A program made the position numbers and the translations under genes. A stretch of DNA of 35,538 bases from a virus (lineage: Duplodnaviria > Caudoviricetes). Shown in pieces: positions 1 through 35,538 of this stretch. The notes below the pieces were generated by a model. The model did not search any database. It was not told where the DNA came from and saw nothing but the letters and a program-made list of their open reading frames with translations. The stretch lies in the IMG/VR virus record IMGVR_UViG_3300020042_002931, positions 1-35,538 of that record; one strand, given 5' to 3'. Every line of letters begins with the position of its first letter. Position 1 is the stretch's first letter.

Positions 1-2
1 AT

Positions 3-1190: not shown

Positions 1191-1253
1191 TGTCGCAAAT
1201 TAATACTATACTTGCGACAAAGTAAACGATGGCGAAAACCTGACTTTTTAACT

Positions 1254-1403
1254 ATGACTTACGGACAAATGATTGCTACGATACAATGTTATTTACATCA
1301 CGTTAAGAATGTAGAAGTAATGATTAACCTACCAAGAAATATAGGCGAAATTAAAAAGATGCAGCAAATGTATTTAATAGCATCAGCTTATTTGAATAGT
1401 TAA
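1254..1403 (+). CDS. Small hypothetical protein (49 aa, MTYGQMIATIQCYLHH...)
   Basis: Conserved as an ORF of the same length in the second copy (32650..32799). Confidence 0.75.
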   Translation: MTYGQMIATIQCYLHHVKNVEVMINLPRNIGEIKKMQQMYLIASAYLNS

Positions 1404-1448
1404 ATATTTGTTAAATGTATTTTATTTAAAACATAAGTATTATATTTG
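1399..1448 (+). promoter_or_regulatory. Bacteroidota-type promoter (-7 box TATATTTG) with upstream tandem GTTAA boxes
   Basis: TAnnTTTG at 1441-1448; GTTAA at 1399 and 1410; ATG follows at 1471. Confidence 0.7.
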
Positions 1449-1470
1449 CTTATAATTAAAAACAAAAGCT

Positions 1471-1584
1471 ATGAATGAATATCCTTTAGAAGAATTAGAA
1501 AACGAATGTGCATATTGCGGAGAAGAATGTGAAAAGACTTATTGCAATAAAGAATGTAAAAAAGCATACGAATCAGAAAATTAA
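1471..1584 (+). CDS. 37-aa Cys-rich mini-protein (CxxC...CxxxC), possible zinc finger
   Basis: MNEYPLEELENECAYCGEECEKTYCNKECKKAYESEN, lying between a promoter and a terminator. Confidence 0.65.
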   Translation: MNEYPLEELENECAYCGEECEKTYCNKECKKAYESEN

Positions 1585-1611
1585 ATTAGGTTAGTTATAT
1601 TTGGTTAAATT

Positions 1612-1640
1612 AGGTACATAGAAATATGTGCCTTTTTTTT
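1612..1640 (+). terminator. Intrinsic terminator
   Basis: AGGTACATA-GAAA-TATGTGCCT plus T-run; copy 2 has compensatory changes (AGGTGTGCA-GAAA-TGTACGCCT). Confidence 0.85.
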
Positions 1641-1647
1641 GTTTAAT

Positions 1648-1670
1648 ACAATTACAACTTTATTTTATTA
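1648..1670 (+). promoter_or_regulatory. Putative late promoter ACAA-N13-TTATTA
   Basis: Same boxes and 13-nt spacing at 8684, 9512, 12736, 31119 and 33134. Confidence 0.6.
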
Positions 1671-1687
1671 TTATCAAAAACAATAAT

Positions 1688-2371
1688 ATGAAGTTAGAAA
1701 TTAGCATACCTACTGAACTAAAAGAAATTAAGTTAGCACAATATCAAGCATTCTTAAAGATAGCCAAAGATAATGAAGATGCAGAATTTCTACATCAAAA
1801 GATGGTACAAACATTTTGCGGAATAGATTTAAAAGAAGTTGCAGAAATAAGATATAAAGATGTAGTTGAAATAACAAACTCTTTAGGTAAAATGTTTGAT
1901 GTTAAAAACCATAAGTTTATAAATAAATTTAAAATGGGTGGAGTTGAATTTGGTTTCATTCCTAATTTAGATGATATGACCTTTGGTGAATATACAGATT
2001 TAGATACATATATAACAGACTGGGAACAGATGCATAAAGCAATGGCAGTATTATATAGACCAATTAAAAAGAATGGCTTAAATGGCACGTATGACATTGA
2101 AAAGTATAATGGTTCAATAACATATAGTGATGTAATGAAACACGCACCGCTTGATGTTGTATTTGGTGCAAATGTTTTTTTTTACACTTTAGGCAACGAA
2201 CTATTGAAAAGTACGATGACTTATTTGGAGAACAACAAGGAGATTCAGACTATTCTGCATCAGCACAATTTGGAAAAAGATGGGGATGGTATAGTTCAAT
2301 CTATGCTATTGCTCAAGGAGACCTTATCCAATTTGATAGAGTTACCGAATTACCAATTAACCAATGTTTAA
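1688..2371 (+). CDS. Putative tail assembly chaperone (G-like), zero-frame product
   Basis: ATG at 1688 (MKLEISIPTEL); T9 slippery run at 2175-2183; lies upstream of tail genes; conserved in copy 2. Confidence 0.65.
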   Translation: MKLEISIPTELKEIKLAQYQAFLKIAKDNEDAEFLHQKMVQTFCGIDLKEVAEIRYKDVVEITNSLGKMFDVKNHKFINKFKMGGVEFGFIPNLDDMTFGEYTDLDTYITDWEQMHKAMAVLYRPIKKNGLNGTYDIEKYNGSITYSDVMKHAPLDVVFGANVFFYTLGNELLKSTMTYLENNKEIQTILHQHNLEKDGDGIVQSMLLLKETLSNLIELPNYQLTNV

Positions 2372-2436
2372 CATATCTAACATTTGAGAAACAAAAGAAT
2401 CAAATAGAATCAGATTTAATAAAGAAAAATAAATGA
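2176..2436 (+). CDS. -1 frameshift extension (GT-like): ...LHFRQRTIEKYDDLFGE...FGKRWGWYSSIYAIAQGD...IKKNK
   Basis: Open -1 frame from the T TTT TTT heptamer to a TGA overlapping the next ATG; also open and conserved in copy 2. Confidence 0.7.
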   Translation, partial: FFLHFRQRTIEKYDDLFGEQQGDSDYSASAQFGKRWGWYSSIYAIAQGDLIQFDRVTELPINQCLTYLTFEKQKNQIESDLIKKNK

Positions 2437-2888
2437 GTACATTTTACGAAATAACGCAGGTAATAAAAAACAAACTACAAGAAGATTTGTTTGTCAATAC
2501 AGTTACAACTGGTGATATATTTAAAGTTGATTTAAACAAGCAAACTATATTCCCTTTAAGTCATATCATTGTAAATTCAGTTTCATATCAAGGTGCTGTA
2601 TTGAATTATAACATATCTATTTTAAGTATGGATATTGTAGATGAAAGTAAAAGTTTAACTACAGATATATTTATAGGTAACGATAACGAACAAGACGTTT
2701 TAAATACACAATTAGCAGTAGCAAATAGATTTTTAGAAGTATTAAGTCGTGGTGCATTAGCTGAAGATTATGAGTTAGTAAATGGTTCTGCATCAATAGA
2801 ATTTTTTGTAGAAAGATTTGAAAATAAATTAGCAGGAGTTACAACTACATTTGATATTGCAATACAAAATCCGATGACTAAATGTTAG
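2433..2888 (+). CDS. Putative tail terminator/completion protein
   Basis: 151 aa; size and position in the tail module; function inferred only. Confidence 0.45.
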   Translation: MSTFYEITQVIKNKLQEDLFVNTVTTGDIFKVDLNKQTIFPLSHIIVNSVSYQGAVLNYNISILSMDIVDESKSLTTDIFIGNDNEQDVLNTQLAVANRFLEVLSRGALAEDYELVNGSASIEFFVERFENKLAGVTTTFDIAIQNPMTKC

Positions 2889-3412
2889 AAGTTGAAAAAG
2901 TTATAACAAAGTTTCGTGATTATGTTATACAGCAATCAAGAAGTAATTTGTCAAAGTCAAGTAAAAACAATTCTAAAGCATTATATAATAGTTTAAAGGG
3001 CGAAGTAGTAACTGAAAACAATTATACTATTGTAGGGTTTCAAATGGCAGATTATGGTACGTTTGTAGATTTAGGTGTTAAAGGTAAAACAAGTTCTAAT
3101 AAAGCACCTAACAGTCCTTATAAGTTTGGTTCAGGTACAGGAAGAAAAGGCGGTTTAACTCAAGGAATAAATCAATGGGTTAAACAAAAAGGGTTTCAAT
3201 TTCGTGATAGAAAATCAGGTAGGTTTTTAAGTTATGAATCAACAGCTTATTTAATTACACGTTCAATATTTCAAAAAGGAATTAAACCAAGTTTGTTTTT
3301 TACAAAACCATTTGAAGCGGGTTACAAAAAATACATAGACGTAGATTTAATAAAAGCATTTGGACAAGATATAGAAACAATGGTAGATTATAATTTAAAA
3401 GATATAAAATGA
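2882..3412 (+). CDS. Putative neck/tail-completion protein (HK97 gp10-like)
   Basis: Basic 176 aa with LYNSL...YGTFVDLGVKG...KGIKPSLFFTKPF pattern typical of virion morphogenesis proteins. Confidence 0.5.
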   Translation: MLEVEKVITKFRDYVIQQSRSNLSKSSKNNSKALYNSLKGEVVTENNYTIVGFQMADYGTFVDLGVKGKTSSNKAPNSPYKFGSGTGRKGGLTQGINQWVKQKGFQFRDRKSGRFLSYESTAYLITRSIFQKGIKPSLFFTKPFEAGYKKYIDVDLIKAFGQDIETMVDYNLKDIK

Positions 3413-3573
3413 ATATAGTGAAAATTTATATAACTGATAACGATTTTGTTAAAAGTTTTACGATTGAAAGCGAAAATGTAATTGACTCAAGTCAATATGT
3501 AATTTTATGGAGTTGCAAAGAAGAAATATATATAGATGAAGAATTAATTGATACAAAATATCATACAATATGA
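3409..3573 (+). CDS. Hypothetical protein (54 aa, MNIVKIYITDND...)
   Basis: ATGA-coupled at both ends; conserved in copy 2 (34903..35064). Confidence 0.7.
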   Translation: MNIVKIYITDNDFVKSFTIESENVIDSSQYVILWSCKEEIYIDEELIDTKYHTI

Positions 3574-4688
3574 AAGTAGTTAAAGTAAGAAGTCCATTTA
3601 TAATCGAAGTAAATGAATCAGGTGCAATAGGAAGTAAAGTTGAATTATTTATTTATAATTATGGCGGTTCAGTTCCTGCAACTCCTACATATACATTATC
3701 AAAACCAAATCCAAGCACAACACAATTAAGCACATCCTATAATGTTTCTAATTATGTTAAAGAATATATAGATAACATAAAAGCTATTTATCCAAATTAT
3801 TATGCCGGTAATGAGGTAGTAAACGAATGGGCATTATTTAGAGTAAAAAGATATAAATTAGTAGGAACTACATATACGCTTTTAGATACTATAGATTATG
3901 TAGGTGTAAATGCTTTCACTAATTATTCAGACGGAATACAAAACCCAAGTGATACTAAAATAAGTATTTTAACAAATACAAATATAAATAAAACGTATTA
4001 TTCACAAGCTACATATCCAAATGATTTAATTCAATATGTAAATTTATTAATAGACAAAACAACAACTACAACAACTATTGTAAATATAAAATATGAAAGA
4101 ATTGATGGAGTTTATTCTTATAATAATAATTCAGATATTTTAGTCGGTTACTCAGGAATATTCAATGTGAAAATACCAATTACCTTAGCTAAAATAGATA
4201 ACAATTTTATAAATAGTTGTAAAGTTACAATTACATACACTCCAGCAAGTGGAAGTTCTATAATACAATCGTTTTATACATACCCAGTAGAAGAATGTAA
4301 ATACACTCCTGTACTTTGTGATTTTATAAATAGATATGGTGGGTGGGAAACTATTACTTTTTTTAAAGCACAAACAAACGCTATAAGCGTAAAAGGTTCA
4401 GAATATAATTTACTACCTTCTGCAATTAATTATAATGTAAATAAAGGACAAAGTAAAGTTTTTAATATAAACGGAACACAAACAGTTAAATTAAATACAG
4501 GTTGGGTTGATGAAAATTACAATGAATTAATAACTGATTTGTTATTAAGCGAAACTGTTTTATTAGATAACAAACCTGTAAAAGTTAAAACACAATCACA
4601 TACTTTTAAAACACAATTAAAAGATAAAATGATAAACTTTGAATTAGACTTTGAATATTCATTTGATTTAATAAATAATGTTATATGA
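3570..4688 (+). CDS. Putative tail tip/distal tail protein
   Basis: 372 aa, beta-rich, FINRYGGWETITF motif; located in the tail module. Confidence 0.5.
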   Translation: MKVVKVRSPFIIEVNESGAIGSKVELFIYNYGGSVPATPTYTLSKPNPSTTQLSTSYNVSNYVKEYIDNIKAIYPNYYAGNEVVNEWALFRVKRYKLVGTTYTLLDTIDYVGVNAFTNYSDGIQNPSDTKISILTNTNINKTYYSQATYPNDLIQYVNLLIDKTTTTTTIVNIKYERIDGVYSYNNNSDILVGYSGIFNVKIPITLAKIDNNFINSCKVTITYTPASGSSIIQSFYTYPVEECKYTPVLCDFINRYGGWETITFFKAQTNAISVKGSEYNLLPSAINYNVNKGQSKVFNINGTQTVKLNTGWVDENYNELITDLLLSETVLLDNKPVKVKTQSHTFKTQLKDKMINFELDFEYSFDLINNVI

Positions 4689-6712
4689 TAGTAGTAGGAA
4701 TATATATAAAGAATTTATCTACATTAAAATATGATAGGGTAGAATTATTTAACGATGAAAAAATATCTGTAACAAGTTCTATTCAAAACATAAATGATAT
4801 ATCTAAAACCTTTACTGATTTTAGCCAAACATTTACAGTTCCAGCTACTAAAAATAATAATAAAATTTTTAAACATTGGTATGAAAATTCTTTAGACACG
4901 CAATTTACTACTTTAACAAAAGCAGACGCATATATTGAACTTGATACAATACCTTTTAGAGTTGGTAAAATACAACTTGAAAGTTGCGATATTAAAAACA
5001 ATGAAGCACAAAGTTATTCAATTACTTTTATAGGTAATTTAGGAAACTTAAAAGATAAATTTGCAGGTTTATTTTTAAAAGATTTAGACACTACTGACTA
5101 TGATATTTCATATACAGCTAATATTGTAAAAGATAAAGTGGTAACAACAGCAGCAAGTGCAGATGTAATGTTTCCTTTAATATCTTCAAATAGATATTGG
5201 AATTATGGTGCTGGTGGAGATAATGATATTACTGTAAATTCACATCCAATAAGATATAATGAATTGTTTCCTGCAGTAAGGTTAAAAACAATTTTTAATA
5301 TGATTGAAGATAAATTCAACGTTAATTTACAAGGAACAACTCAAAATCCAAGTACTTTTTTAGCAGATGCAAGGTTTACAAATGCTTATTTATATTTAAA
5401 AAATGCAGATAGTTTTATTTTAAAAAGTTCACCAAACTTAATAACTTGGGATACTAAAACAACTGCTAATTATTTTGATATTAATTTAACCAATGATACT
5501 TGGCGTTCAACTATAACAGATGAAACTTTAACTGCCGATGATTTTGTGGGACAATTTGCTTTTATTCGCCTTCAATTTACAGTTGTAGGTTTGCCATATA
5601 GTCTTGTTACTTATAAAAACGGAGTTGAAATTTTAAGACAATCTTTTACTACTGTTTCAGATACTGGTAAAATTTATTTAGCAAATGATTTTAACACTAC
5701 TGATATTTATAATGTTAGTATTGTAGCAAACGAGGTTGTTACATTTAATGCTTTTTTACTTTTAGAAACACAATTTGACGACCCAATATCAGGACCGTTT
5801 GTGATTTCTGATGATGCTTTAAAAAATACAAATCAAACTACTGTTACTGCTAAATTATCTTTAAATTCTTATTTTCCCGAAATAAAAATAGAAGATTTCT
5901 TTAGTGGTGTTTTAAAAATGTTTAACCTTACTTGCTTTTCAAGTGATGGAATAAATTACACAATAGATACTTTAGAAAATTTTTACACTATAGGTACTAT
6001 AATAGATTTAACAAAATATATTAAAACAGATGCTACAAATTTAACAAGAGTAAAATCATATAAGAAAATAAATTTTTTATATGAAAAATCAGAATCCTTA
6101 GTTAATGTAGGTTTTCTTTCTGCTAATAATATTGAATATGGAAATCTATTATACACTACAAATAATGATGGAGAAGAATATTCAATTAAATTGCCTTTTG
6201 AAGATTTAAACTTTAACAACTTAAAAGACAAATTACAAGTTGGATATGCTTTAAAAACAGACTTACAAAAATATATACCAAAGCCAATAATTTTATATGA
6301 TTATAATCCAGCATCACTAACCGCTTTAACTGCTACAACTTTTCATTTTTCAAATGTAACAAGTGGAACAGGAACAGCACACACATCTTACAAAGCATTT
6401 GGGCAAGAATTATTAACAGGTGGAATTACTTATTCATTAAATTTTCCTGCTCAACAAAGTACATTAACAAATGTAGTTATAGATAATAGTTTATATCAAA
6501 CTTATTATTCAAATTACATAGGCAATATATTTAACTATAGAGCACGATTAATTAAAGTTAGTGGTATATTACCAACATCACTATTAACGTCTCTTAAATT
6601 AAACAATAGACTTATAATAAGAGACAAACGATACATTATAAATTCTTTTACAACTGATTTAACAACAGGCGAAGCATCATTTGAATTACTAACTGATTTA
6701 AGAACATTATGA
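4685..6712 (+). CDS. Putative tail tip/baseplate hub protein
   Basis: 675 aa with N-terminal FSQTFTVPATKNNNKIF motif; directly before the tape measure gene. Confidence 0.55.
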   Translation: MIVVGIYIKNLSTLKYDRVELFNDEKISVTSSIQNINDISKTFTDFSQTFTVPATKNNNKIFKHWYENSLDTQFTTLTKADAYIELDTIPFRVGKIQLESCDIKNNEAQSYSITFIGNLGNLKDKFAGLFLKDLDTTDYDISYTANIVKDKVVTTAASADVMFPLISSNRYWNYGAGGDNDITVNSHPIRYNELFPAVRLKTIFNMIEDKFNVNLQGTTQNPSTFLADARFTNAYLYLKNADSFILKSSPNLITWDTKTTANYFDINLTNDTWRSTITDETLTADDFVGQFAFIRLQFTVVGLPYSLVTYKNGVEILRQSFTTVSDTGKIYLANDFNTTDIYNVSIVANEVVTFNAFLLLETQFDDPISGPFVISDDALKNTNQTTVTAKLSLNSYFPEIKIEDFFSGVLKMFNLTCFSSDGINYTIDTLENFYTIGTIIDLTKYIKTDATNLTRVKSYKKINFLYEKSESLVNVGFLSANNIEYGNLLYTTNNDGEEYSIKLPFEDLNFNNLKDKLQVGYALKTDLQKYIPKPIILYDYNPASLTALTATTFHFSNVTSGTGTAHTSYKAFGQELLTGGITYSLNFPAQQSTLTNVVIDNSLYQTYYSNYIGNIFNYRARLIKVSGILPTSLLTSLKLNNRLIIRDKRYIINSFTTDLTTGEASFELLTDLRTL

Positions 6713-11559: not shown

Positions 11560-12111
11560 ATGCCTTGCGATATTTCATTAGGAAGAGCCGAACAATGTAA
11601 AAATTCAATCGGTGGATTAAGAGCAGCATACTTCATTAATTGGGGTGATGCTACAACGGTAACATATTCTGCAACTGCAGGAAGTGAAGATGTAATAACT
11701 GCTTTAGGTGGAACTCCTATCGGTTACAAATATGAATTAAAAGGAAGTTCTACATTTGAGCAAACTTTAACTTCATCAAGAGAAAATGGAACTACATTTG
11801 TAGACCAAAAATTATCTTTAAGTATTAAAAAATTAACTGTTGCTGACCACAAACAGTTGAAATTACTTTCTTATGGTAGACCGCAAGTTATTGTAGAAGA
11901 TAACAATGGTAACTTCTTTTTAGCAGGTTTAACTAAAGGAATGGATTTAGTTACTTCAACTATTTCAAGTGGTGCTGGTATGGGCGATATGTCAGGTTAT
12001 AAAATTGAATTTCAAGGTATGGAACCTTTAGCAGCAAATTTTATAGTACCTACTGCTGGTACATTAGTTAGTGCAGTTTTAGCTTCTATTGTTGAAGGTA
12101 CTGTAGCATAA
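11560..12111 (+). CDS. Putative major tail (tube) protein, paralogue 1
   Basis: 183 aa, MPCDISLGRAEQCKNSIGG...SSRENGTTF...GRPQVIVEDNNG. Confidence 0.65.
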   Translation: MPCDISLGRAEQCKNSIGGLRAAYFINWGDATTVTYSATAGSEDVITALGGTPIGYKYELKGSSTFEQTLTSSRENGTTFVDQKLSLSIKKLTVADHKQLKLLSYGRPQVIVEDNNGNFFLAGLTKGMDLVTSTISSGAGMGDMSGYKIEFQGMEPLAANFIVPTAGTLVSAVLASIVEGTVA

Positions 12112-12134
12112 TATTAATTTTAAAAAAATATACT

Positions 12135-12674
12135 ATGCCTTGTGATATAACTTTGGGGAGAGCCGAACAATGTAAGAACGTTATAGGTGGAATAAGGGCA
12201 GTTTGGTTTTTTAATTATCTTAGTAGTACTGTTATAACTGTTGATGGCAATGATGTAATACAAAATGTATCAAATCCTGGTGACGCATCACTATATAAAT
12301 ACGAATTAAAGGGTGCATCAACTTTTGAACAAACAGTTACTTCGTCAAGAGAAAATGGTTCTGCTTTTGTAGAACAGAAATTAACTTTACATTTAAAGAA
12401 GTTATCTATTGCAGACCACAAACAACTTAAAATTTTAAGTTATGGTAGACCAAGAATATTTGTAGAAGATAACAACGGTAACATATTTTTAGCTGGAAAA
12501 GAAAAAGGTATGGAATTAACTTCTTCTACAATTTCTACAGGTGCAACGATGAGTGATATGTCAGGTTATAAATTAGAATTTGTAGGAACTGAATTTATTG
12601 CTGCTAATTTTATTCTCAATAACGATGTAGATGCTGTTGGATTAGAATTTATTGTTGTAGGTACTGTAGCATAA
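12135..12674 (+). CDS. Putative major tail (tube) protein, paralogue 2
   Basis: 179 aa, collinear with paralogue 1; same N-terminal motif and C-terminal GTVA. Confidence 0.65.
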   Translation: MPCDITLGRAEQCKNVIGGIRAVWFFNYLSSTVITVDGNDVIQNVSNPGDASLYKYELKGASTFEQTVTSSRENGSAFVEQKLTLHLKKLSIADHKQLKILSYGRPRIFVEDNNGNIFLAGKEKGMELTSSTISTGATMSDMSGYKLEFVGTEFIAANFILNNDVDAVGLEFIVVGTVA

Positions 12675-18501: not shown

Positions 18502-19617
18502 ATGATACAAATTAAAGAAGAATTTAAAAAATTAATTCCTGCATTAACAAATGAAGAATTTAAACAACTTGAAGCGAATTGCTTGGCTGAGGGTATTCGT
18601 GAAAAAATTATAACTTGGAATGGGTTTATAATTGATGGGCATAACCGTTTTGAAATTGCTACCCGTTGGAATTTAGATTATCAAACTGAAAGTAAAAGAT
18701 TTGATAATGAAAATGATGTTCGTGAATGGATGATTAACAACCAATTTGGTAGAAGAAATTTAAGTAATTATCAAAGAAGTGTTTTAGCTTTAGAACTTGA
18801 AAGTGTATTTTCTGCAAGAGCAAAAGAAAGAATGTTAAGTGGCAAACCTGTGCCGAAATCAGAACAGGGTAGAACTATTGAAAAAGTTGCTGATGTTGCA
18901 AATGTTGGTAAAGATACAATAGCAAAAGTAAAAGTAATTGAAGCCAAAGCAAGTGAAGAAGTTAAAGCACAATTAAGCACTGGCGAAGTAAGTATAAACC
19001 AAGTTTATCAAGAAATAAAAAAAGAGGAAAAGAAAGCAGTTAGAATTGAATTAATTGAACAACAAATAGAAGATATTGAACAGGGTTTATTGCCTGAATT
19101 AGAAGGTTTATTTGATGTTGTTTCAGTTGACCCGCCTTGGCCTTATGAAGGAGAAAACAAAAATATAACTTCATTTGATTCAGTAGGTAGAAGAGTTGCA
19201 AATCCATATCCTGAAATGAGCATTGAAGATATAAAAAAAATTGAAATGCCTTTAATAAATGATGCTGTTGTATTACTTTGGACTACACATAAATTTTTGC
19301 CTGATGCTTTTGAAATTTTAAAAGAATGGGGATTAGATTACAAAGCAACTTTAGTTTGGAATAAAGAAAAAATGGGAATGGGTGCTTGGTTTAGAATGCA
19401 ATGTGAGTTTTGTATTGTAGGAGTTAAAGGTAAACCATATTGGGAAAATACAACCTTTAGAGATATTTTAAACGAACCAAGAAGGGAACACTCAAGAAAG
19501 CCAGATTCGTTTTTTGAAATGATTGAAAAAATAACAATGGGAAGAAGGTTAGAATATTTTAGTAGAGAAAAAAGAAATGGATGGGAAGTTTTTGGAAACG
19601 ATATAAATAAATTTTAA
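18502..19617 (+). CDS. ParB-like N-terminal domain fused to MT-A70 family N6-adenine methyltransferase
   Basis: IIDGHNR and QFGRRNL (ParB-like); VDPPW, LLWTT, LVWNK, HSRKP and LEYFSR (MT-A70). Confidence 0.88.
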   Translation: MIQIKEEFKKLIPALTNEEFKQLEANCLAEGIREKIITWNGFIIDGHNRFEIATRWNLDYQTESKRFDNENDVREWMINNQFGRRNLSNYQRSVLALELESVFSARAKERMLSGKPVPKSEQGRTIEKVADVANVGKDTIAKVKVIEAKASEEVKAQLSTGEVSINQVYQEIKKEEKKAVRIELIEQQIEDIEQGLLPELEGLFDVVSVDPPWPYEGENKNITSFDSVGRRVANPYPEMSIEDIKKIEMPLINDAVVLLWTTHKFLPDAFEILKEWGLDYKATLVWNKEKMGMGAWFRMQCEFCIVGVKGKPYWENTTFRDILNEPRREHSRKPDSFFEMIEKITMGRRLEYFSREKRNGWEVFGNDINKF

Positions 19618-19620
19618 ATT

Positions 19621-20085
19621 ATGAGTTTTCAAATTAAATTGCAAAAAGGAGAACTTGGAGAACAAATAATTTCAAATTATTTAGAAAAAAAAGGGTGGAT
19701 AGTTTACCGCCCTTTTACAAAAGATAAAGCACATTATTTTGATATGCTTTGTACTTATAATAAAGAAAAAGTTATTGCTATTGATGTAAAAACAAAAGCA
19801 CGATTAAATAAATGGAACGCACAAGGGATAAATATAAAAAGCTATAATGAGTACTTAAATTTTGTAAAAACTACTTCGGTTAATTTTTACCTTATTTTCG
19901 TAGATGACAAAACAGGAGCAGTTCATTTAGCTGATTTAATTAAATTAAAAAACCCAATATATCCAAATGAAAAAATAATAGCTTGGAATTTGAATGATAT
20001 GAAATATTTATTTACAATTACAGAAAATGAAATTAAAGAACTATCTAAATACGACCAAAGAAATTATGAGTTTAAGCCAAGTTAA
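19621..20085 (+). CDS. PD-(D/E)XK nuclease-like protein
   Basis: KGELGEQII...FDML...IDVKTK motif. Confidence 0.6.
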   Translation: MSFQIKLQKGELGEQIISNYLEKKGWIVYRPFTKDKAHYFDMLCTYNKEKVIAIDVKTKARLNKWNAQGINIKSYNEYLNFVKTTSVNFYLIFVDDKTGAVHLADLIKLKNPIYPNEKIIAWNLNDMKYLFTITENEIKELSKYDQRNYEFKPS

Positions 20086-20534: not shown

Positions 20535-20595
20535 GTTAAAGTATTGTTAAAAAAAATTAATATAGTTTTATATTCAAAAAACAGTTATATATTTG
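20535..20595 (+). promoter_or_regulatory. Early promoter (TATATTTG) with tandem GTTAA boxes
   Basis: GTTAA at 20535 and 20546; -7 box at 20588-20595. Confidence 0.7.
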
Positions 20596-20897: not shown

Positions 20898-21452
20898 ATG
20901 GAATTAACACTTAATCAAAAACTATCTTTAATTCAAAAAGAATTTAAAGCAAACAAATCAAAATTAAATAGTTTTGGAAAATACAACTTTAGAAGTGCAG
21001 AAGATATATTAGAAGCACTTAAACCTTTTAACGAAAAATATAAAGTGAATTTTACAATTACAGAATCAATAGTTGAATCACAATTTTTACAATTTCCAAT
21101 GTTACGTTCTGTAGCTGCAATAAGTGATGATTTAGACACACTAACGGCTTCAGCAATAGTTGGTGTAGATTTAGAACAAAAAGGAATGCAAATGCCACAA
21201 AAGTTTGGTTCTGCAAGTTCTTATGCTAAAAAGTACGCATTAGGTAATTTATTGCTAATTGACGATACACAAGATGCAGACGCATCAAATAAGCACGAAA
21301 AGAGTACTTCTAAAGAAGAATTAAAATGGTTAAATAAAAATACACCTGAATTTAATAAAGCATTAGAATACGTTAAAAATGGTGGTTTAGTTTCTGCAAT
21401 AGAAGCTAAATATAAAATGACTAAAGAAGTGAAAGACGAATTAACTAAATAA
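20898..21452 (+). CDS. erf: ERF-family single-strand annealing protein
   Basis: YNFRSAEDIL and GSASSYAKKYALGNLLLIDDTQDAD signature. Confidence 0.88.
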   Translation: MELTLNQKLSLIQKEFKANKSKLNSFGKYNFRSAEDILEALKPFNEKYKVNFTITESIVESQFLQFPMLRSVAAISDDLDTLTASAIVGVDLEQKGMQMPQKFGSASSYAKKYALGNLLLIDDTQDADASNKHEKSTSKEELKWLNKNTPEFNKALEYVKNGGLVSAIEAKYKMTKEVKDELTK

Positions 21453-21507
21453 GTTATAACGGTTGAGTGTAAAAAATCGTTTTAATGTTTTTTACACTTT
21501 GTTATAA
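21453..21507. repeat. attC-like hairpin A1
   Basis: GTTATAAC-ggttg-AGTGTAAAAAA-11 nt-TTTTTTACACT-tt-GTTATAA. Confidence 0.8.
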
Positions 21508-21548
21508 GTATGTTAATTTTTAGTTTTACCTTATAAAAAATATATAAT

Positions 21549-21782
21549 ATGAAAAGAGAATTGAAATGTATTCACAATAGAGCAATAAATCCAGAAATGG
21601 GTGTAGTGTGTGATTTAAGACAACCAAACTCATTGTGTAAAAACTGTAAAACATTCAAGGCGAAATACCCAAGTTATTGCTGTCAAAAATGTGGAGAATG
21701 TATAGGTTGGCTTGGTAGATTTATTGAATGGGTTTATTGTGGTTTGATAAAGCATAAATGTAAATCCAAAGCTAAAAATTAA
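21549..21782 (+). CDS. Cassette-borne Cys-rich protein (77 aa)
   Basis: ORF inside GTTA...TAAC unit 21501-21793. Confidence 0.65.
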   Translation: MKRELKCIHNRAINPEMGVVCDLRQPNSLCKNCKTFKAKYPSYCCQKCGECIGWLGRFIEWVYCGLIKHKCKSKAKN

Positions 21783-21786
21783 TTAC

Positions 21787-21917
21787 TTATAACTATCGTA
21801 TAGACGTCTGTTGCGTAAAAACACAAAACCATCTTTCAGTTTAACACGGAATTGAAAGGTACAAAACAATCACTAAATTAATCACAATGTAGCAATAGCG
21901 TGTAATTGCTGTTATAA
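21787..21917. repeat. attC-like hairpin A2
   Basis: TTATAAC...TAGACG[T]CTGTTGC ... GCAATAG-CGTGTA...GTTATAA, with inner stem CTTTCAGTT/AATTGAAAG. Confidence 0.7.
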
Positions 21918-21926
21918 CCAGTTATT

Positions 21927-22142
21927 ATGTGGAATAGAGAATTAAAAGAAAGAATAAAGTTATTAGAATATGAGAATTACTTATTATCTAATAAACTAAA
22001 AGAAATTGAAAAGCAGTTAAAACCAATTATGCCATCATTTTCATTTCCAAGATTAATTAGAGAAGATGGAATTGATTTAAGTTACGAACATTTAAGAAAA
22101 AAATATCGTGATTTCGATGTTATTTACAAAGATGGGTTATAA
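21927..22142 (+). CDS. Cassette-borne hypothetical protein (71 aa)
   Basis: ORF inside unit 21911-22153. Confidence 0.65.
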   Translation: MWNRELKERIKLLEYENYLLSNKLKEIEKQLKPIMPSFSFPRLIREDGIDLSYEHLRKKYRDFDVIYKDGL

Positions 22143-22146
22143 TTGG

Positions 22147-22213
22147 TTATAACGTTTACAGCTATACGTCAGGTTTTGTTTTTCAAAAAACTTGCGTATA
22201 GGTGGTGTTATCG
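22147..22213. repeat. attC-like hairpin A3
   Basis: TTATAAC...CTATACG[T]CAGGTTTT-9 nt-AAAACTTG-CGTATAG...GTTATCG. Confidence 0.8.
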
Positions 22214-22256
22214 GCTGCCCTTCTTTAGGAATGATTAATAATTTAAAATAAATAAA

Positions 22257-22496
22257 ATGGAACAAACAACACTTAAAAAGCTAATTGATTTTAATGATAA
22301 ATTGATAGCTAAAAATGGAGAAACTTTAACTGCATACGAAATTTTACAAAAAGTAATTCGTAAAGCTGCGGAACTTGTTGAAGAAGAAAAAACAATTATT
22401 GCAGATGCTTTTAACGAAGGTTATAGAGCAGGTAATTATGACAGGGGAACTTCTGGAATTGAATACTATGTCGAAAATTTCGGTGATGTCAGTTAG
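22257..22496 (+). CDS. Cassette-borne hypothetical protein (79 aa)
   Basis: ORF inside unit 22207-22509; resembles 30514..30726. Confidence 0.7.
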   Translation: MEQTTLKKLIDFNDKLIAKNGETLTAYEILQKVIRKAAELVEEEKTIIADAFNEGYRAGNYDRGTSGIEYYVENFGDVS

Positions 22497-22502
22497 GGTT
22501 GC

Positions 22503-22578
22503 CGATAACTATCGTATAGACGCTGTAGATTTAAAAAACAAAATAAGTATTATCTATTGCGTTTATACTAAGTTATAA
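22503..22578. repeat. attC-like hairpin A4
   Basis: CGATAAC-tatc-GTATAGACGC-tg-TAGAT ... ATCTA-tt-GCGTTTATAC-taa-GTTATAA. Confidence 0.75.
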
Positions 22579-22582
22579 TTAT

Positions 22583-22590
22583 TATATTTG
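22583..22590 (+). promoter_or_regulatory. Promoter -7 box TATATTTG for the SSB-like gene
   Basis: TAnnTTTG about 55 nt before the ATG at 22646. Confidence 0.6.
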
Positions 22591-22645
22591 TAAAACTGAA
22601 TAGCTGACAACAGTAAAAAAAGGTAAGCAATAAAAAACAAATAAT

Positions 22646-22942
22646 ATGGGTGCATTAATTAATTTAAGTTTAAGAGTAGACAAATTACCAAAAGAGAAGT
22701 TTGTTCAAGGTAAAGATGGAGCAGTTTATTACAATTTTACTATTGGAGTAAATGATGAATCTAACCAATGGGGTCAAAATGTTTCTGCAACAGATTCACA
22801 AACTAAAGAAGAACGTGAAGCTAAAAAGCCAAAGTCTTATTTAGGTAATGGAAATGTAATTTGGACAGATGGTAACATTAAAATTGCTGATAAAAAAGCA
22901 GAAGTTACTGCAGAAGTAGTAGGAGCGGATTTGCCGTTCTAA
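22646..22942 (+). CDS. Putative single-stranded DNA-binding protein
   Basis: 98 aa, beta-rich, C-terminal DLPF tail, near erf. Confidence 0.65.
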   Translation: MGALINLSLRVDKLPKEKFVQGKDGAVYYNFTIGVNDESNQWGQNVSATDSQTKEEREAKKPKSYLGNGNVIWTDGNIKIADKKAEVTAEVVGADLPF

Positions 22943-27686: not shown

Positions 27687-27700
27687 TAACGGTTGAGTGT

Positions 27701-27850
27701 ATGAGTAGTAAAAATAGAATTATACCAAATGTTCCAAAAGAGGAACGAGTTGGTTTTGAATGTGGTTATCATAAAATACCAAATTGGATGTTAATATTGT
27801 TTGGTATAATTGTATTTGTTGGGATTGTGTGTTGGGTTTATTGTTCATAA
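27701..27850 (+). CDS. 49-aa protein with C-terminal TM helix
   Basis: MSSKNRIIPNVPKEERVGFECGYHKIPNWMLILFGIIVFVGIVCWVYCS; its stop codon lies in the TAAC of the next hairpin. Confidence 0.55.
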   Translation: MSSKNRIIPNVPKEERVGFECGYHKIPNWMLILFGIIVFVGIVCWVYCS

Positions 27851-28057
27851 CGTTTCTCGGCTATACGTCAGGTTTTTTACGGATTTGAAACACTAAATTA
27901 AAATATATGATGCAAGTAATTGAAATGACACACTCTGAAAAAGTAGAGATGTATCAAATGATTGAGAAAGATAGATTGATAGAAATGCTGATAGAAGCGA
28001 ATAATGTTATTAACCGACTAACGGAAGTAAAAAACTTGCGTATAGCCGATGTTAGTG
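27845..28057. repeat. attC-like hairpin A6 with a gene start inside its loop
   Basis: TAAC-gtttc-TCGGCTATACG[T]CAGGTTTTTTAC (27857-27880) ... GTAAAAAACTTG-CGTATAGCCGA (28027-28049)-t-GTTAGTG. Confidence 0.85.
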
Positions 28058-28170
28058 GGCGAAGCGAACTGTTAATTGCCTTGCAGAACATTGAAAAGAT
28101 TTGCGATAACCAAAATCCAACGCACGAAGAAATATGGAGGATTGCTTATGGGGCAATTAATAGCCAGTAA
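27907..28170 (+). CDS. Two-module hypothetical protein spanning a cassette junction (87 aa)
   Basis: Reads through the hairpin arm as KNLRIADVSGRSELL. Confidence 0.7.
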   Translation: MMQVIEMTHSEKVEMYQMIEKDRLIEMLIEANNVINRLTEVKNLRIADVSGRSELLIALQNIEKICDNQNPTHEEIWRIAYGAINSQ

Positions 28171-28261
28171 CGTTTTGCAGCTTTAAGAAGTGGCTGCCTA
28201 AAAATTACTTCATTTGACAAACAATGCTTATGGCAGACATTTTTTAAAGGTGCTGTTATAG
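28165..28261. repeat. attC-like hairpin A7
   Basis: TAAC-gtttt-GCAGCTTTAAGAAGTGGCTGCC ... GGCAGACATTTTTTAAAGGTGC-t-GTTATAG. Confidence 0.8.
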
Positions 28262-28280
28262 GTAGTTAATTTACAGAAAA

Positions 28281-28484
28281 ATGAATAAATTATTACTTAC
28301 ATTAAAAAGAGATTACAACGATTCAATAATTTTAGTTGCAAATAATCATAAGGATTTAGAAGATTACTTACGTTCAAATTATGATTTTCATAAAATAAAT
28401 GTAAATGATGATTCGGTTATTATTGTAGCAAGAGAAGGTTATGAAACAGAATATGGAACACTTGAATGGATACGTCAAGTTTAA
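28281..28484 (+). CDS. Cassette-borne hypothetical protein (67 aa)
   Basis: ORF inside unit 28255-28495. Confidence 0.7.
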   Translation: MNKLLLTLKRDYNDSIILVANNHKDLEDYLRSNYDFHKINVNDDSVIIVAREGYETEYGTLEWIRQV

Positions 28485-28527
28485 TTACCTATAACTACTC
28501 GCTACACGCTATAAATGTATTACAATT

Positions 28528-28710
28528 ATGAAACAGTACACGCAAACAAAAGTAATTCGCATTTCAGAAATGCAATTAAATACGCTTCAAAAAATGAAAT
28601 CTTTAAACGTTGATGTAGGTAATTTTATCAGAATAGCAATACAAGAAAAAATTAAAAGAGATTACAAAGAATTAATATTGAAACCTAAAAAAGAATATTG
28701 TCCGTTTTAA
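28528..28710 (+). CDS. Ribbon-helix-helix-like DNA-binding protein
   Basis: TKVIRISE...VGNFIRIAIQEKI pattern (beta-alpha-alpha). Confidence 0.55.
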   Translation: MKQYTQTKVIRISEMQLNTLQKMKSLNVDVGNFIRIAIQEKIKRDYKELILKPKKEYCPF

Positions 28711-31458: not shown

Positions 31459-32650
31459 CGATAAATTTAATTTATTAGGTTCTGAAAGTAGATACTTTGT
31501 TATAACAGGTGGACGTGGTTCTGGTAAGTCTTATTCTTTAAATTCATTTTTATTAGGATTGACTTATGAAACAGGACACGTAATATTATTTACAAGATAT
31601 ACATTAACATCTGCATCTGTATCTATTATACCTGAATTTATAGATAAGATTGAAACAGCTAATTTAAGCCACGATTTTTATATAACTAAGGACGAAATCA
31701 TAAATAGAAAAACAGGGTCTAAGATTCTATTTAAAGGTATTAAAACAAGTAGTGGTACACAAACAGCATCACTTAAATCATTAGCAGGTGTTACAACTTG
31801 GGTGTTAGATGAAGCAGAAGAATTAACAGATGAAGAAACATTTGAAAAGATAGACTTTAGCATAAGAACTAAAGGCATACACAATAGAGTTTTATTAGTA
31901 TTAAACCCTGCAACAAAAGAACACTTTATATATAAGAAATTCTTTGAAGATAAAGGAGTAGAAGCCGGTAGTAATTTAATCAAAGGAGATACTACATACA
32001 TACACACAACCTATTTAGATAATATTGAAAACCTATCCGAATCATTTATAAATCAAATAGAGAATATAAAGAATCGTAGACCTGAGAAATACAAACATCA
32101 GATATTAGGTGGATGGTTAGATAAAGCAGAAGGTGTTATCTTTACTAATTGGACTATAGGAGAATATAAACAGGTAGGTAAATCTGTATTCGGCCAAGAT
32201 TATGGATTTGCTGCAGACGCATCAACTTTAGTAGAATGTAATATAGACACAACAAACAAACGAATTTATATTAATGAAAGGTTTTATCTGCACGGTTTAA
32301 CTACTTCGCAGATATACCATTTAAATAGGCAACACGCAAATGATTGTTTAATAGTAGCAGATAGTGCTGAACCAAGATTGATAAGTGAATTAGCTACATT
32401 AGGTTTAAATATAGTTCCTGCAATTAAAGGTCCTGATTCTGTTACTTATGGTATTAGTGTATTGCAAGATTATGATTTGATAGTATCACCTGAATCAATA
32501 AACTTAATTAAAGAATTAAACAATTATTGTTGGTTAGAAAAAAGGTCTAAAACTCCAATCGATGCGCACAATCATATTATTGACCCATTAAGATATTGTA
32601 TTACATATCAATTAGGTAACGCAAACAAAGGTAATTACTTTATATACTAA
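31442..32650 (+). CDS. terL: Terminase large subunit (complete)
   Basis: GGRGSGKS, WVLDEAEE and NHIIDPLRY motifs. Confidence 0.95.
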   Translation: MEINLNDKFNLLGSESRYFVITGGRGSGKSYSLNSFLLGLTYETGHVILFTRYTLTSASVSIIPEFIDKIETANLSHDFYITKDEIINRKTGSKILFKGIKTSSGTQTASLKSLAGVTTWVLDEAEELTDEETFEKIDFSIRTKGIHNRVLLVLNPATKEHFIYKKFFEDKGVEAGSNLIKGDTTYIHTTYLDNIENLSESFINQIENIKNRRPEKYKHQILGGWLDKAEGVIFTNWTIGEYKQVGKSVFGQDYGFAADASTLVECNIDTTNKRIYINERFYLHGLTTSQIYHLNRQHANDCLIVADSAEPRLISELATLGLNIVPAIKGPDSVTYGISVLQDYDLIVSPESINLIKELNNYCWLEKRSKTPIDAHNHIIDPLRYCITYQLGNANKGNYFIY

Positions 32651-32799
32651 TGACATACGGAGAAATAATAGCAGCAATACAATGTTACATACATCACGTT
32701 AAAGGAATAGAAGTGGCTATTAATCTACCACGTAATATAGGTGAAATTAAAAAGATGCAACAGATGTATACTATAGCAGCTGAGTATTTAAAAAGTTAA
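32650..32799 (+). CDS. Small hypothetical protein (49 aa), homologue of 1254..1403
   Basis: MTYGEIIAAIQCYIHHVKG... Confidence 0.75.
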   Translation: MTYGEIIAAIQCYIHHVKGIEVAINLPRNIGEIKKMQQMYTIAAEYLKS

Positions 32800-32844
32800 A
32801 TAATTGTTAAAACTAATTTATGTAACAAATTTATATTATATTTG
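32795..32844 (+). promoter_or_regulatory. Promoter (TATATTTG) with tandem GTTAA boxes
   Basis: GTTAA at 32795 and 32806; -7 box at 32837-32844. Confidence 0.7.
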
Positions 32845-32869
32845 TTAAAAATTTAAAACAAACAAACAA

Positions 32870-33076
32870 ATGAAAAAAATTAAAGTAGCAGTTAATTATT
32901 GTAATATAGAATTTGAAGTAAAAGGATTCTATACAAAAGGTGATTCATATGATTATACAGGTAGCACTATTGAAGATGAAGAAATATTAATAGAAGGTGT
33001 TGATGTGTATGAAATACTATCTTCAAAACAAATGAATGATATAATTGATTTAGCAATACATCAAATAGAAGATTAG
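32870..33076 (+). CDS. Acidic hypothetical protein (68 aa), alternative occupant of the variable slot
   Basis: Unrelated to 1471..1584 at the syntenic position. Confidence 0.7.
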   Translation: MKKIKVAVNYCNIEFEVKGFYTKGDSYDYTGSTIEDEEILIEGVDVYEILSSKQMNDIIDLAIHQIED

Positions 33077-33097
33077 GTTAATTAAATTTGGTTAAAG

Positions 33098-33126
33098 AGG
33101 TGTGCAGAAATGTACGCCTTTTTTTT
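33098..33126 (+). terminator. Intrinsic terminator
   Basis: AGGTGTGCA-GAAA-TGTACGCCT plus T-run. Confidence 0.85.
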
Positions 33127-33133
33127 GTTTAAT

Positions 33134-33156
33134 ACAATATCACAAAATAGTTATTA
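33134..33156 (+). promoter_or_regulatory. Putative late promoter ACAA-N13-TTATTA
   Basis: Boxes retained while the spacer differs from copy 1. Confidence 0.6.
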
Positions 33157-33173
33157 ATATAAAAAACAATAAT

Positions 33174-33857
33174 ATGAAATTAGAAATAAGCATACCTACA
33201 GAATTAAAAGAAATTAAGTTATCACAATATCAAGCGTTCTTAAAGATAGCTAAAGATAATGAAGATGAAGAATTTTTGAATCAGAAAATGGTACAAACAT
33301 TTTGTAATATAGATTTAAAAGATGTAGCTGAAATTAGATTTAAAGATGTATTAGAAATAACTGCATCACTTGGTAAAATGTTTAATGTGCAATCACATAA
33401 ATTTATAAACAGATTTAAACTTGGTGGAGTTGAGTTTGGTTTTATTCCTGAATTAGAAGATATGACCTTTGGTGAATATACAGATTTAGATTCATACATA
33501 GGTGATTGGGATAATATGCACAAAGCTATGGCAGTATTATATAGACCAATTACAAAGAAGGGTTTAAATAACACGTATGAAATAGAAAAGTATAATGGTA
33601 GTATTACATATAGTGATGTAATGAAACACGCACCTTTGGATGTTGTATTTGGTGCTAATGTTTTTTTTTACAATTTAGGCAACGAACTATTGAAAAGTAC
33701 ACTGACTTATTTGGAGAACAATCAGGAGACACAGACTATTCTGCATCAGCACAATTTGGACAACGGTGGGGATGGTACAGTTCAATCTATGCTATTGCTC
33801 AAGGAGATCTTACAAGATTTGATAGAGTTACCGAATTACCAATTAACCAATGTTTAA
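33174..33857 (+). CDS. Putative tail assembly chaperone, copy 2 (-1 extension to 33919)
   Basis: T9 run at 33661-33669; -1 frame open to TAA at 33917-33919. Confidence 0.65.
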   Translation: MKLEISIPTELKEIKLSQYQAFLKIAKDNEDEEFLNQKMVQTFCNIDLKDVAEIRFKDVLEITASLGKMFNVQSHKFINRFKLGGVEFGFIPELEDMTFGEYTDLDSYIGDWDNMHKAMAVLYRPITKKGLNNTYEIEKYNGSITYSDVMKHAPLDVVFGANVFFYNLGNELLKSTLTYLENNQETQTILHQHNLDNGGDGTVQSMLLLKEILQDLIELPNYQLTNV

Positions 33858-33918
33858 CATATTTAACATTTGAGAAACAAAAGAATCAAATAGAATCTGA
33901 TTTAATTAAAAAAAGATA

Positions 33919-34374
33919 ATGAGTACATTTTACGAAATAACACAAGTGATTAAAAACAAACTGCAAGAAGATTTGTTTGTTAATACAGTAACAACTGGTG
34001 ATATATTTAAAGTTGATTTAAATAAGTTAACTATATTTCCTTTAAGTCATATTATAGTTAATTCAGTATCTTATCAAGGTCCTGTATTGAACTATAATAT
34101 ATCTATTTTATGTATGGATATTGTAGATGAATCAAAAGAAAAGGTAACAGATATATTCTTGGGTAATGATAACGAGCAAGATGTATTAAATACACAATTA
34201 GCTGTAGCAAATAGATTCTTAGAATTATTAAGTCGTGGTGATTTAGCTGATGATTATGAATTAGTAAACAATAGTGCAAACATAGAATTTTTTACAGAAC
34301 GATTTGAAAACAAAATAGCAGGTGTTACATTTACTTTTGATATGGCTATTGAAAACAGAATGACAAAATGTTAA
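33919..34374 (+). CDS. Homologue of 2433..2888
   Basis: Same length, highly similar protein. Confidence 0.75.
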   Translation: MSTFYEITQVIKNKLQEDLFVNTVTTGDIFKVDLNKLTIFPLSHIIVNSVSYQGPVLNYNISILCMDIVDESKEKVTDIFLGNDNEQDVLNTQLAVANRFLELLSRGDLADDYELVNNSANIEFFTERFENKIAGVTFTFDMAIENRMTKC

Positions 34375-34906
34375 AACTTGAAAAGGTAAACAAAACTATT
34401 CAAATGTTTCGTGACTATGTTATTCGTGAAGCAAAGGATAATTTAAAAAGCAAAGGTCATAACAATACAAGTTCATTAGCAAATAGTATTAAAGGTGAAG
34501 TAGTAACAGAAAACGATTTTACTATTGTAGGCTTTAAGATGAACGATTATGGTACGTTTGTAGATTTAGGTGTTAAAGGTAAAACAAGTTCTAATAAAGC
34601 GCCTGATTCTCCTTACAAGTTTGGTTCAGGTACAGGTCAAAAAGGCGGTTTAACAAAAGGAATAAATCAATGGGTTAAACAAAAAGGTTTTCAATTTCGT
34701 GATAAAAAATCGGTAGGTTTTTAAGTTATGATTCAACAGCTTATTTAATTACACGTTCTATATTTCACAAAGGAATTAAACCAAGTTTATTTTTTACAAA
34801 ACCATTTGAAGCAGGATATAAGAAATACATCGATGTAGATTTAATAAAAGCATTTGGTCAAGATGTAGAAACAATGGTAGATTATAATTTAAAAGATATA
34901 AAATGA
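34368..34906 (+). pseudogene. Homologue of 2882..3412 with a 1-bp deletion near 34711 (pseudogene or sequence error)
   Basis: aaatcggtagg versus aaatcaggtagg in copy 1; the downstream part stays intact in another frame. Confidence 0.7.
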
Positions 34907-35064
34907 ACATAGTAAAAATTTATAAAGAAAAAGATACAATTCCAACTTTCATAATAGAAAGTGAAAATTTAATTGATACAACTCAATACGTAATTTTATG
35001 GGATTGCAAAGAAGAAATATATATAGATGAAGAATTAATTGATACAAAATATCATACAGTATGA
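34903..35064 (+). CDS. Homologue of 3409..3573
   Basis: MNIVKIYKEKDTIPTF...IDTKYHTV. Confidence 0.7.
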   Translation: MNIVKIYKEKDTIPTFIIESENLIDTTQYVILWDCKEEIYIDEELIDTKYHTV

Positions 35065-35538
35065 AAGTAGTTAGAGTAAGAAGTCCGTTTATAATTGAAG
35101 TAAACGAAGCTGGTTCAATAGGAAGTAAAATTGAATTATTTATTTATAATAATGGAAGTGGAGTTCCTGCTACCCCTACATATACATTATCAAAACCAAA
35201 CCCAAGTGCAACACAATTAAGTACATCTTATAATGTTTCTAATTTTGTTAAAGAATATATAGATAATATAAAACCAAACAATGTTAATAATCCATTAGCA
35301 GGTAGTGAAGCAGTTAAAGAATGGGTTTTATTTACAGTAAAAAGATATAAATTAGTAGGAAGTACATATACACTTTTAGACACTACTATATATTATGGTG
35401 TTAATGGATTCACAAATTATTCAGATGGAATACAAAATCCAAGCAATACTAAAATTCTTCTTTTAGCAAATCCAAATATTAATAATTATTATTATAAAGA
35501 TTCTTATGCTGATTTAAAAATGGAGTATTTAAATCTTT
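35061..35538 (+). CDS. Homologue of 3570..4688 (3'-truncated by window)
   Basis: MKVVRVRSPFIIEVNEAGSIGSK... Confidence 0.8.
   Translation, partial: MKVVRVRSPFIIEVNEAGSIGSKIELFIYNNGSGVPATPTYTLSKPNPSATQLSTSYNVSNFVKEYIDNIKPNNVNNPLAGSEAVKEWVLFTVKRYKLVGSTYTLLDTTIYYGVNGFTNYSDGIQNPSNTKILLLANPNINNYYYKDSYADLKMEYLNL

Follow-up and report, generated by a model that had tools for sequence, protein, structure and literature searches.

Three single-gene units stacked against a fixed terminal hairpin, A4, form an integron-like array in a tailed phage; a Xer-like recombinase from outside the phage likely moves these units out and in at TAAC (a reading to which we give a probability of roughly 70%). The array is real and integrase-less; it acts like an integron yet departs from the definition of one in several respects. 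It lies in IMG/VR record IMGVR_UViG_3300020042_002931, analyzed over its full 35,538 nucleotides (the window). The genes of the record, which include those for terminase, portal, endolysin, ERF, and NinG, are those of a tailed phage of ~31.5 kb and 28% GC. Positions 1-4001 and 31461-35495 are 78-96% identical over ~4 kb, so two strains of a ~31.5-kb circular genome have probably been merged here, and a complete array was found in no single sequencing run; both observations count against our main reading. The runs contained at most 0.24 of the words, which gives no basis for a claim about expression. From the sites common to this phage and cultured Flavobacterium phages, we infer a Bacteroidota host. 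Elsewhere in the window, a tandem pair of phrog_19091 paralogues (11560-12674) is ~74% identical at the DNA level, and an MT-A70 methyltransferase gene is followed by a weak PD-(D/E)XK nuclease match (18502-20085).

The first-pass annotation had described four imperfect TAAC...GTTA palindromes, two of them with an extrahelical T. All four elements are present. A1 (21457-21504) is a 48-nt cassette hairpin that runs from TAACG to TGTTA, and its 11-nt loop is the same as that of a published site, P12002L_attC1. A3 (22150-22210) is a 61-nt cassette hairpin that is reused widely, and A4 (22506-22575), which begins TAAC-TA, is the fixed terminal site and likely an attI-like docking site. A4 (TAACT, spacers of 4 and 3 nt) is of a different kind from A1 and A3 (TAACG, 3-nt asymmetry). 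A2 (21790-21914) is chimeric: an A4-type left 17 nt sits on the body of an intact 127-nt site, whose whole counterpart is found in a related viral locus (L166) and in phage lillamy9-1, and its outer stem is broken. When the + strand was folded, A1, A3, and A4 gave z scores of -4.4, -4.2, and -2.9, respectively, with 0 of 200 shuffles as good for each, and these three are imperfect hairpins with an AAC/GTT outer box, as attC sites have. The palindrome claim does not extend to A2, which is no full palindrome (z = -0.13; 76 of 200 shuffles as good). The extrahelical T appears in the fold of A3 and, by eye only, in the inner stem of A2. We also trained a covariance model on 26 long sites, A2 among them. 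In the window it ranked A2 first, then two sites of a second array, followed by A3, A4, and A1, with E values from 8e-14 to 2e-3; nothing else scored better than E 0.74. A generic stem score (28.5 for A1 and 32 for A4) was not above the best shuffles (up to 33), so the significance of A1 and A4 rests on shuffle folding and the covariance model.

The hairpins alternate with three genes in the same orientation, as had been noted from the letters. Gene 1 (21549-21782, +; 77 aa, cysteine-rich, no PHROG or Pfam family), gene 2 (21927-22142, +; 71 aa, no family), and gene 3 (22257-22496, +; 79 aa, no family) occupy units of ~21460-21792, ~21793-22152, and ~22153-22508. Across each gene, the sequence just after one GTTA is complementary to that just before the following TAAC, in runs of 6, 6, and 5, and pairing between the flanks of a single hairpin is weaker (3, 3, 1, and 1); end pairing across the gene is expected of a unit that circularizes through its two ends. 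Gene 1 has a homologue (81%) in another array, L081, in which the unit ends have co-varied (its other matches were partial and were left out), and A1 with most of gene 1 is unchanged in an independent contig. At a gene 2 homologue (94%) in another array, the right arm of the upstream hairpin is kept and divergence sets in just past the closing TAAC. Gene 3 has 16 homologues, without a Pfam match; no relatives of it were found in viral contigs.

To the left, the array is flanked by an ERF single-strand annealing gene (20898-21452, +; PF04404, E 5e-27), and to the right by a conserved 98-aa gene (22646-22942, +; phrog_24909, 449 relatives), whose product has an SSB-like acidic tail. A TAnnTTTG motif at 20588-20595 (+), presumably the Bacteroidota -7 promoter element, is likely an early promoter that would read through ERF into the array. 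A second such motif, together with a conserved intergenic element (22591-22640), spans 22583-22640 (+), outside the cassettes, and is present in most empty sites. Variant forms of this element recur around non-cassette inserts (L002, L062, L068, and L166), which points to another means of gaining genes at this junction. The earlier observation that no promoter is seen inside the units stood up, as no TAnnTTTG was found there on the + strand and a sigma70 promoter scan was at chance level. In a complete integron the Pc promoter lies at attI; here, the nearest candidate promoter is upstream of ERF, and since the genes point toward A4 they could not be read from a promoter at A4.

We then compared the best 80 of the 449 viral loci that have the right-flank gene; the ERF gene, and thus both flanks, are present in 78. 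Fifty-one of these 78 are empty, A4 stands by itself in 2, and 7 contain different units that end at A4 (two of the seven are near duplicates, and one has a gene without an upstream hairpin); the remaining 18 carry site-less inserts, which count against the main reading. A4 is the final element in all 9 relatives that carry it, and the end of the last unit matches at A4 over a perfect five bases in 4 of 7 (4/5 in L073). L002 has the same left flank as the window but continues directly with A4, which puts the boundary of insertion at TAAC rather than GTT. In a contig assembled from an independent run, ERF is followed by A3 without units 1 and 2, the letters between ERF and A3 being marked as not known. 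A3 itself has a 96.7% match spanning exactly TAAC to GTTA in Flavobacterium phage mymlan6-1, and both of its borders show high depth and loose ends in contigs from three runs. The genes downstream of A3 differ between phages, indicating that hairpins are re-coupled to new genes; this variety, too, counts against the main reading. A gene capture and shuffling platform, proposed from the window alone, is thus upheld by content that varies among relatives with breakpoints at TAAC. The breakpoints had been expected at GTT/AAC, and only the TAAC end was borne out. It follows from this position that a hairpin moves together with the gene lying downstream.

A second array in the window (27687-28520, +) consists of a half site at 27687, sites at 27848-28054 and 28168-28258, and a terminal TAAC-TA site at 28492; its junction is empty in many relatives, and one of its units has unmatched ends. 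The site at 27848-28054 is 207 nt long, with the first part of an ORF in its loop, and ORF starts inside the upstream hairpin were also seen in several relatives. The 60-aa gene that follows (phrog_25647; region 27687-28710) lies behind a similar site in L026, L050, and L156, and the atlas gave no function for it.

The half site and the unmatched unit, together with the broken A2 and a phage that has no recombinase, raise the prospect that the array is a fossil here, brought in from a larger phage as one block through homologous recombination, and that its site-specific shuffling has ceased in this lineage. The adjoining ERF gene fits such an import, as does the duplication of the intergenic element after A4 around other inserts. 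However, six distinct other arrays in the lineage end at the TAAC of A4, and the ERF-to-A3 junction and the precise swaps in recombinase-less cultured phages (below) speak for continued exchange. We consider a fossil unlikely and retain the reading of site-specific exchange at TAAC.

Cultured Flavobacterium phages gain, lose, and reorder such units. Phage lillamy9-1 has a 14-site array that includes two methyltransferase units, and in the aligned stretch it differs from lillamy9-6 by one hairpin-plus-gene swap with TAAC at both borders. Among 17 genes shared by 7 isolates (for lillamy9-7, the comparison covered its first 7 kb), the downstream hairpin had changed in 8 and the upstream hairpin in 3, two of the latter differing near the left end only. 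All 20 junctions shown among the cultured isolates diverge at or just past TAAC(G), consistent with the exchange at AAC of attC sites, the exact bond being beyond the resolution of sequence. In lillamy9-7, one unit with an A2-related hairpin has relocated to the terminal TAAC-TA site. This comparison took the place of an all-against-all linkage test, which yielded 7 pairs, none above the thresholds. Against the main reading, the junction in A2 lies inside a stem rather than at TAAC; together with the 3 of 17 changed upstream hairpins, it indicates that some exchange occurs inside stems too. The available portions of the main text of Nilsson 2020 (PMC7077304) do not contain the words 'cassette' or 'integrase'.

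The sites form a family. In an alignment of 26 sites, 14 of 19 pairs show double changes and 93.5% of cells pair, compared to 33-51% when slid, with the structure derived from the same 26 sequences and the slid control inflated thereby. A heuristic detector found 223 distinct phage units, related loci among them not being independent, in which all five end bases match across the gene in 166 and across the hairpin in 3 (permutation mean 3.7, maximum 12). Bacterial units likewise have perfect ends across the gene in 21 of 30, versus 0 across the hairpin. Family sites start TAACG and finish TGTTA, and their left spacer exceeds the right by 3-4 nt. They also carry a G.T pair at a distance of 15 nt from GTTA; it falls on the TAACG strand in 243/263 phage and 52/55 bacterial sites. 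Bulges are absent from 191 of the 263 phage sites, lie on the AAC arm in 53, and on the other arm in 20. Of the units with matched ends, 180 of 198 from phages have their gene on the TAACG strand, and 20 of 23 from bacteria have it on the opposite strand; the strand of the G.T pair is the same in bacteria although their genes face the other way.

Matches to the covariance model occurred in 59 of the 121 Bacteroidota genomes sampled and in a single one of 71 from Pseudomonadota. The lone Pseudomonadota genome has four matches on one contig (L357-L359, G292:C8), by transfer or mis-binning. Sites were detected by the covariance model only: a two-arm pattern gave 0/201 Bacteroidota genomes, and an exact pattern scan of genome contigs gave 16 stretches, both of those inspected being chance matches. 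In one bacterial array (L212), two ORFs (4121-4669 and 5584-5850) run in the phage direction, one of them for an RNase AS-like exonuclease, and may reflect cassette traffic from phage to host.

The better-folding strand is the mRNA strand in 247 of 281 phage sites, and a start codon often lies in the loop. The hairpins could then be RNA-level elements (terminators, or processing or translation signals), with the genes swapped by homologous or microhomology recombination between repeats; the promoter stem-loop modules of T4-type phages, where genes swap between repeats, are a model for this, and the microhomology junction in A2 agrees with it. Yet only 4-6 nt are common at the breakpoints, the ends co-vary across genes, the strand asymmetry is kept in bacteria with reversed genes, the arrays are polar to a recombinase gene, and Rfam 15 at gathering score gave no relevant family for the window or for 11 array loci. 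We therefore regard the RNA explanation as very unlikely. Under the recombination reading, it counts against us that in bacteria the better fold belongs to the TAACG strand at no more than 32 of 57 sites.

We next considered the enzyme. Bacterial arrays end at a tyrosine recombinase gene (270-360 aa). Among viral loci with this enzyme (the best 80 of 198, several of them duplicates, counted from a table and without a control with another recombinase), 40 have covariance-model matches, and 187 of the 192 matches lie upstream on the same strand. In Bacteroidota, sites occur in 26 of 33 genomes with the enzyme and 33 of 88 without it (Fisher p 7e-5); the 33 genomes that have sites but no close recombinase match, and the 7 of the reverse kind, weigh against the main reading. 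In 17 of 29 phage arrays inspected, the last unit closes on a site with the consensus TAAC-TA-T-n-ATATATA just before the recombinase gene; in 5 the closing partner was another hairpin, and none emerged in the other 7. A4 has the majority base of the 17 recombinase-adjacent sites at 12 of its first 15 positions, in line with its likely role as a docking site. By eye, a TAACT or CAACT site lies near the 3' end of the recombinase gene in ~15/28 bacterial loci. The recombinase gene is on the same strand and reads away from the array in phages, and it mostly converges on the array in the bacteria inspected.

The array-linked enzyme is not an integron integrase by the usual signature. It scored below the cut-off of TIGR02249 (integron integrase), skipping positions ~180-236, and in an alignment with true IntI it is gapped at the IntI insertion, and so lacks the I2 insertion of integron recombinases. 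I2 is the domain that accommodates extrahelical bases (Escudero 2016, PMC4792948, in the portion available), and the accessible text of Smyshlyaev 2021 (PMC8138268) describes an integron-like subgroup of recombinases in which the insertion is not fully conserved. XerA/XerC-type simple recombinases (NF040815; PDB 4A8E and 5HXY) are the nearest family and structures: the enzyme scored 216 bits against NF040815 (cut-off 220), and its best solved structure match was archaeal XerA 4A8E (E 8e-36; IntI4 2A3V, E 6e-23). Unlike these, the array-linked gene heads cassette arrays, and the same genomes hold other Xer-type genes too. A recombinase tree with two outgroups, both long-branched, did not place the family.

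Weaker model matches lie upstream of a related 'integrase' in Polaribacter phages Leef_1 and Freya and, weakly, in Cellulophaga phage Ingeline. These three (L354-L356) may be complete systems in culture; such an integrase gene was taken as a sign of a temperate lifestyle in the part of Bartlau et al. available (PMC8776804). Searches by tblastn found no cultured phage with the phage enzyme at 1e-40 and 34 records with a bacterial query at 1e-25. The differences in size between Freya isolates were not linked to any cassette.

With classical integrons, as described in the available portions of PMC5027507 and PMC4792948, the system shares AAC/GTT-boxed hairpins, units of one gene each that break at the AAC end, a tyrosine recombinase with a fixed end site next to it and likely re-insertion there, and a median site length of 122-126 nt; the bacterial arrays also share the classical gene direction. 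The sites had been likened to classical attC, and this equation did not survive. The classical recombinogenic strand has 2-3 extrahelical bases opposite AAC (PMC5027507, in the part available), whereas most sites of this family lack extrahelical bases or have them on the AAC arm, the spacers are asymmetric by 3-4 nt, a conserved G.T pair is present instead, and the enzyme is not IntI and has no I2. An attC site is 3' of its gene, as in the bacterial arrays, whereas the phage hairpin moves with its downstream gene; with the unit composed of a hairpin plus the gene behind it, phage genes on the AAC strand face opposite to those of classical cassettes.

The accessible text of Qi 2023 (PMC9892861) reports 17 phage CALINs, attC-like clusters without an integrase in virulent phages, as here. 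One of its sites, P12002L_attC1 of a Polaribacter phage, belongs to this family (A1's loop; covariance-model match, E 0.008), the strand cloned as 'bottom' being the gene-sense strand. That text treated it as attC and does not describe a separate site family, a docking site, or a cognate enzyme. As to whether such an array had been described, phage attC clusters have thus been published, one family site included, and our literature search, which covered few subscription papers, found no published description of the system itself.

The array could in principle be a true CALIN, with divergent attC hairpins recombined by a classical IntI of the host. The AAC core, the hairpin form, and the pairing of cassette ends are in common; HattCI called a family site attC, and another P12002L site did recombine with IntI1 (PMC9892861, in the part available). 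One of 5 array-rich genomes also has a true IntI. On the other hand, IntI1 integrated all of six sites except P12002L_attC1 (same source), no model match was found in the 6.6 kb around the true IntI, the array-adjacent gene lacks the IntI insertion, and the spacer asymmetry and bulge positions are those set out above. We judge a CALIN highly improbable and continue with the Xer-like enzyme.

The window itself has no candidate for PF00589, so the phage has no tyrosine recombinase and no IntI in cis. The 32 related records, including the reordering cultured phages, have none either; this absence counts against the main reading, in which the action of a recombinase here is inferred. In the mechanism that we propose, the TAACG strand would fold, and the Xer-like enzyme would pair with the folded site and cut between A and C of AAC, a single-strand chemistry. 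The stem covariation and the strand-specific G.T pair are indirect signs of such chemistry. The hairpin-plus-gene unit would be released as a circle, with the outer stem completed by the complementary ends of the unit, and this circle would re-enter at either A4 or a different hairpin. Either the host or a co-infecting phage would supply the enzyme in trans, and the array genes would be read from the early promoter upstream of ERF.

Overall, this array is likely part of an integron-like shuffling system that occurs in Bacteroidota and their phages, has scarcely been described, and is predicted to run on a Xer-like enzyme. More tentatively, at slightly under even odds, hosts and phages may share a second, separately evolved integron with an I2-less Xer-like recombinase and a different single-strand site code, from which enzyme-less lytic phages capture the docking site only and borrow the enzyme, cassettes passing between host and phage with their direction reversed in phages. 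If so, capture of a docking site would make any early-gene junction a shuffling platform. In the available text, IntegronFinder 2.0 (bioRxiv 2022.02.28.482270) names one complete integron in Bacteroidetes proper and Ghaly 2021 (PMC8618304) merely lists the phylum, compared to a site family in nearly half of the Bacteroidota genomes scanned here. The system would account for the hypervariable small-gene regions of Flavobacterium phages, whose cassettes include DNA methyltransferases; a methyltransferase is linked to, and tracks, plating efficiency in these phages (PMC7077304, available portion). With phages and hosts in culture, a direct test is possible. The system would also provide a natural case of hairpin-site recombination without an I2 domain, and so bears on the origins of integrons.
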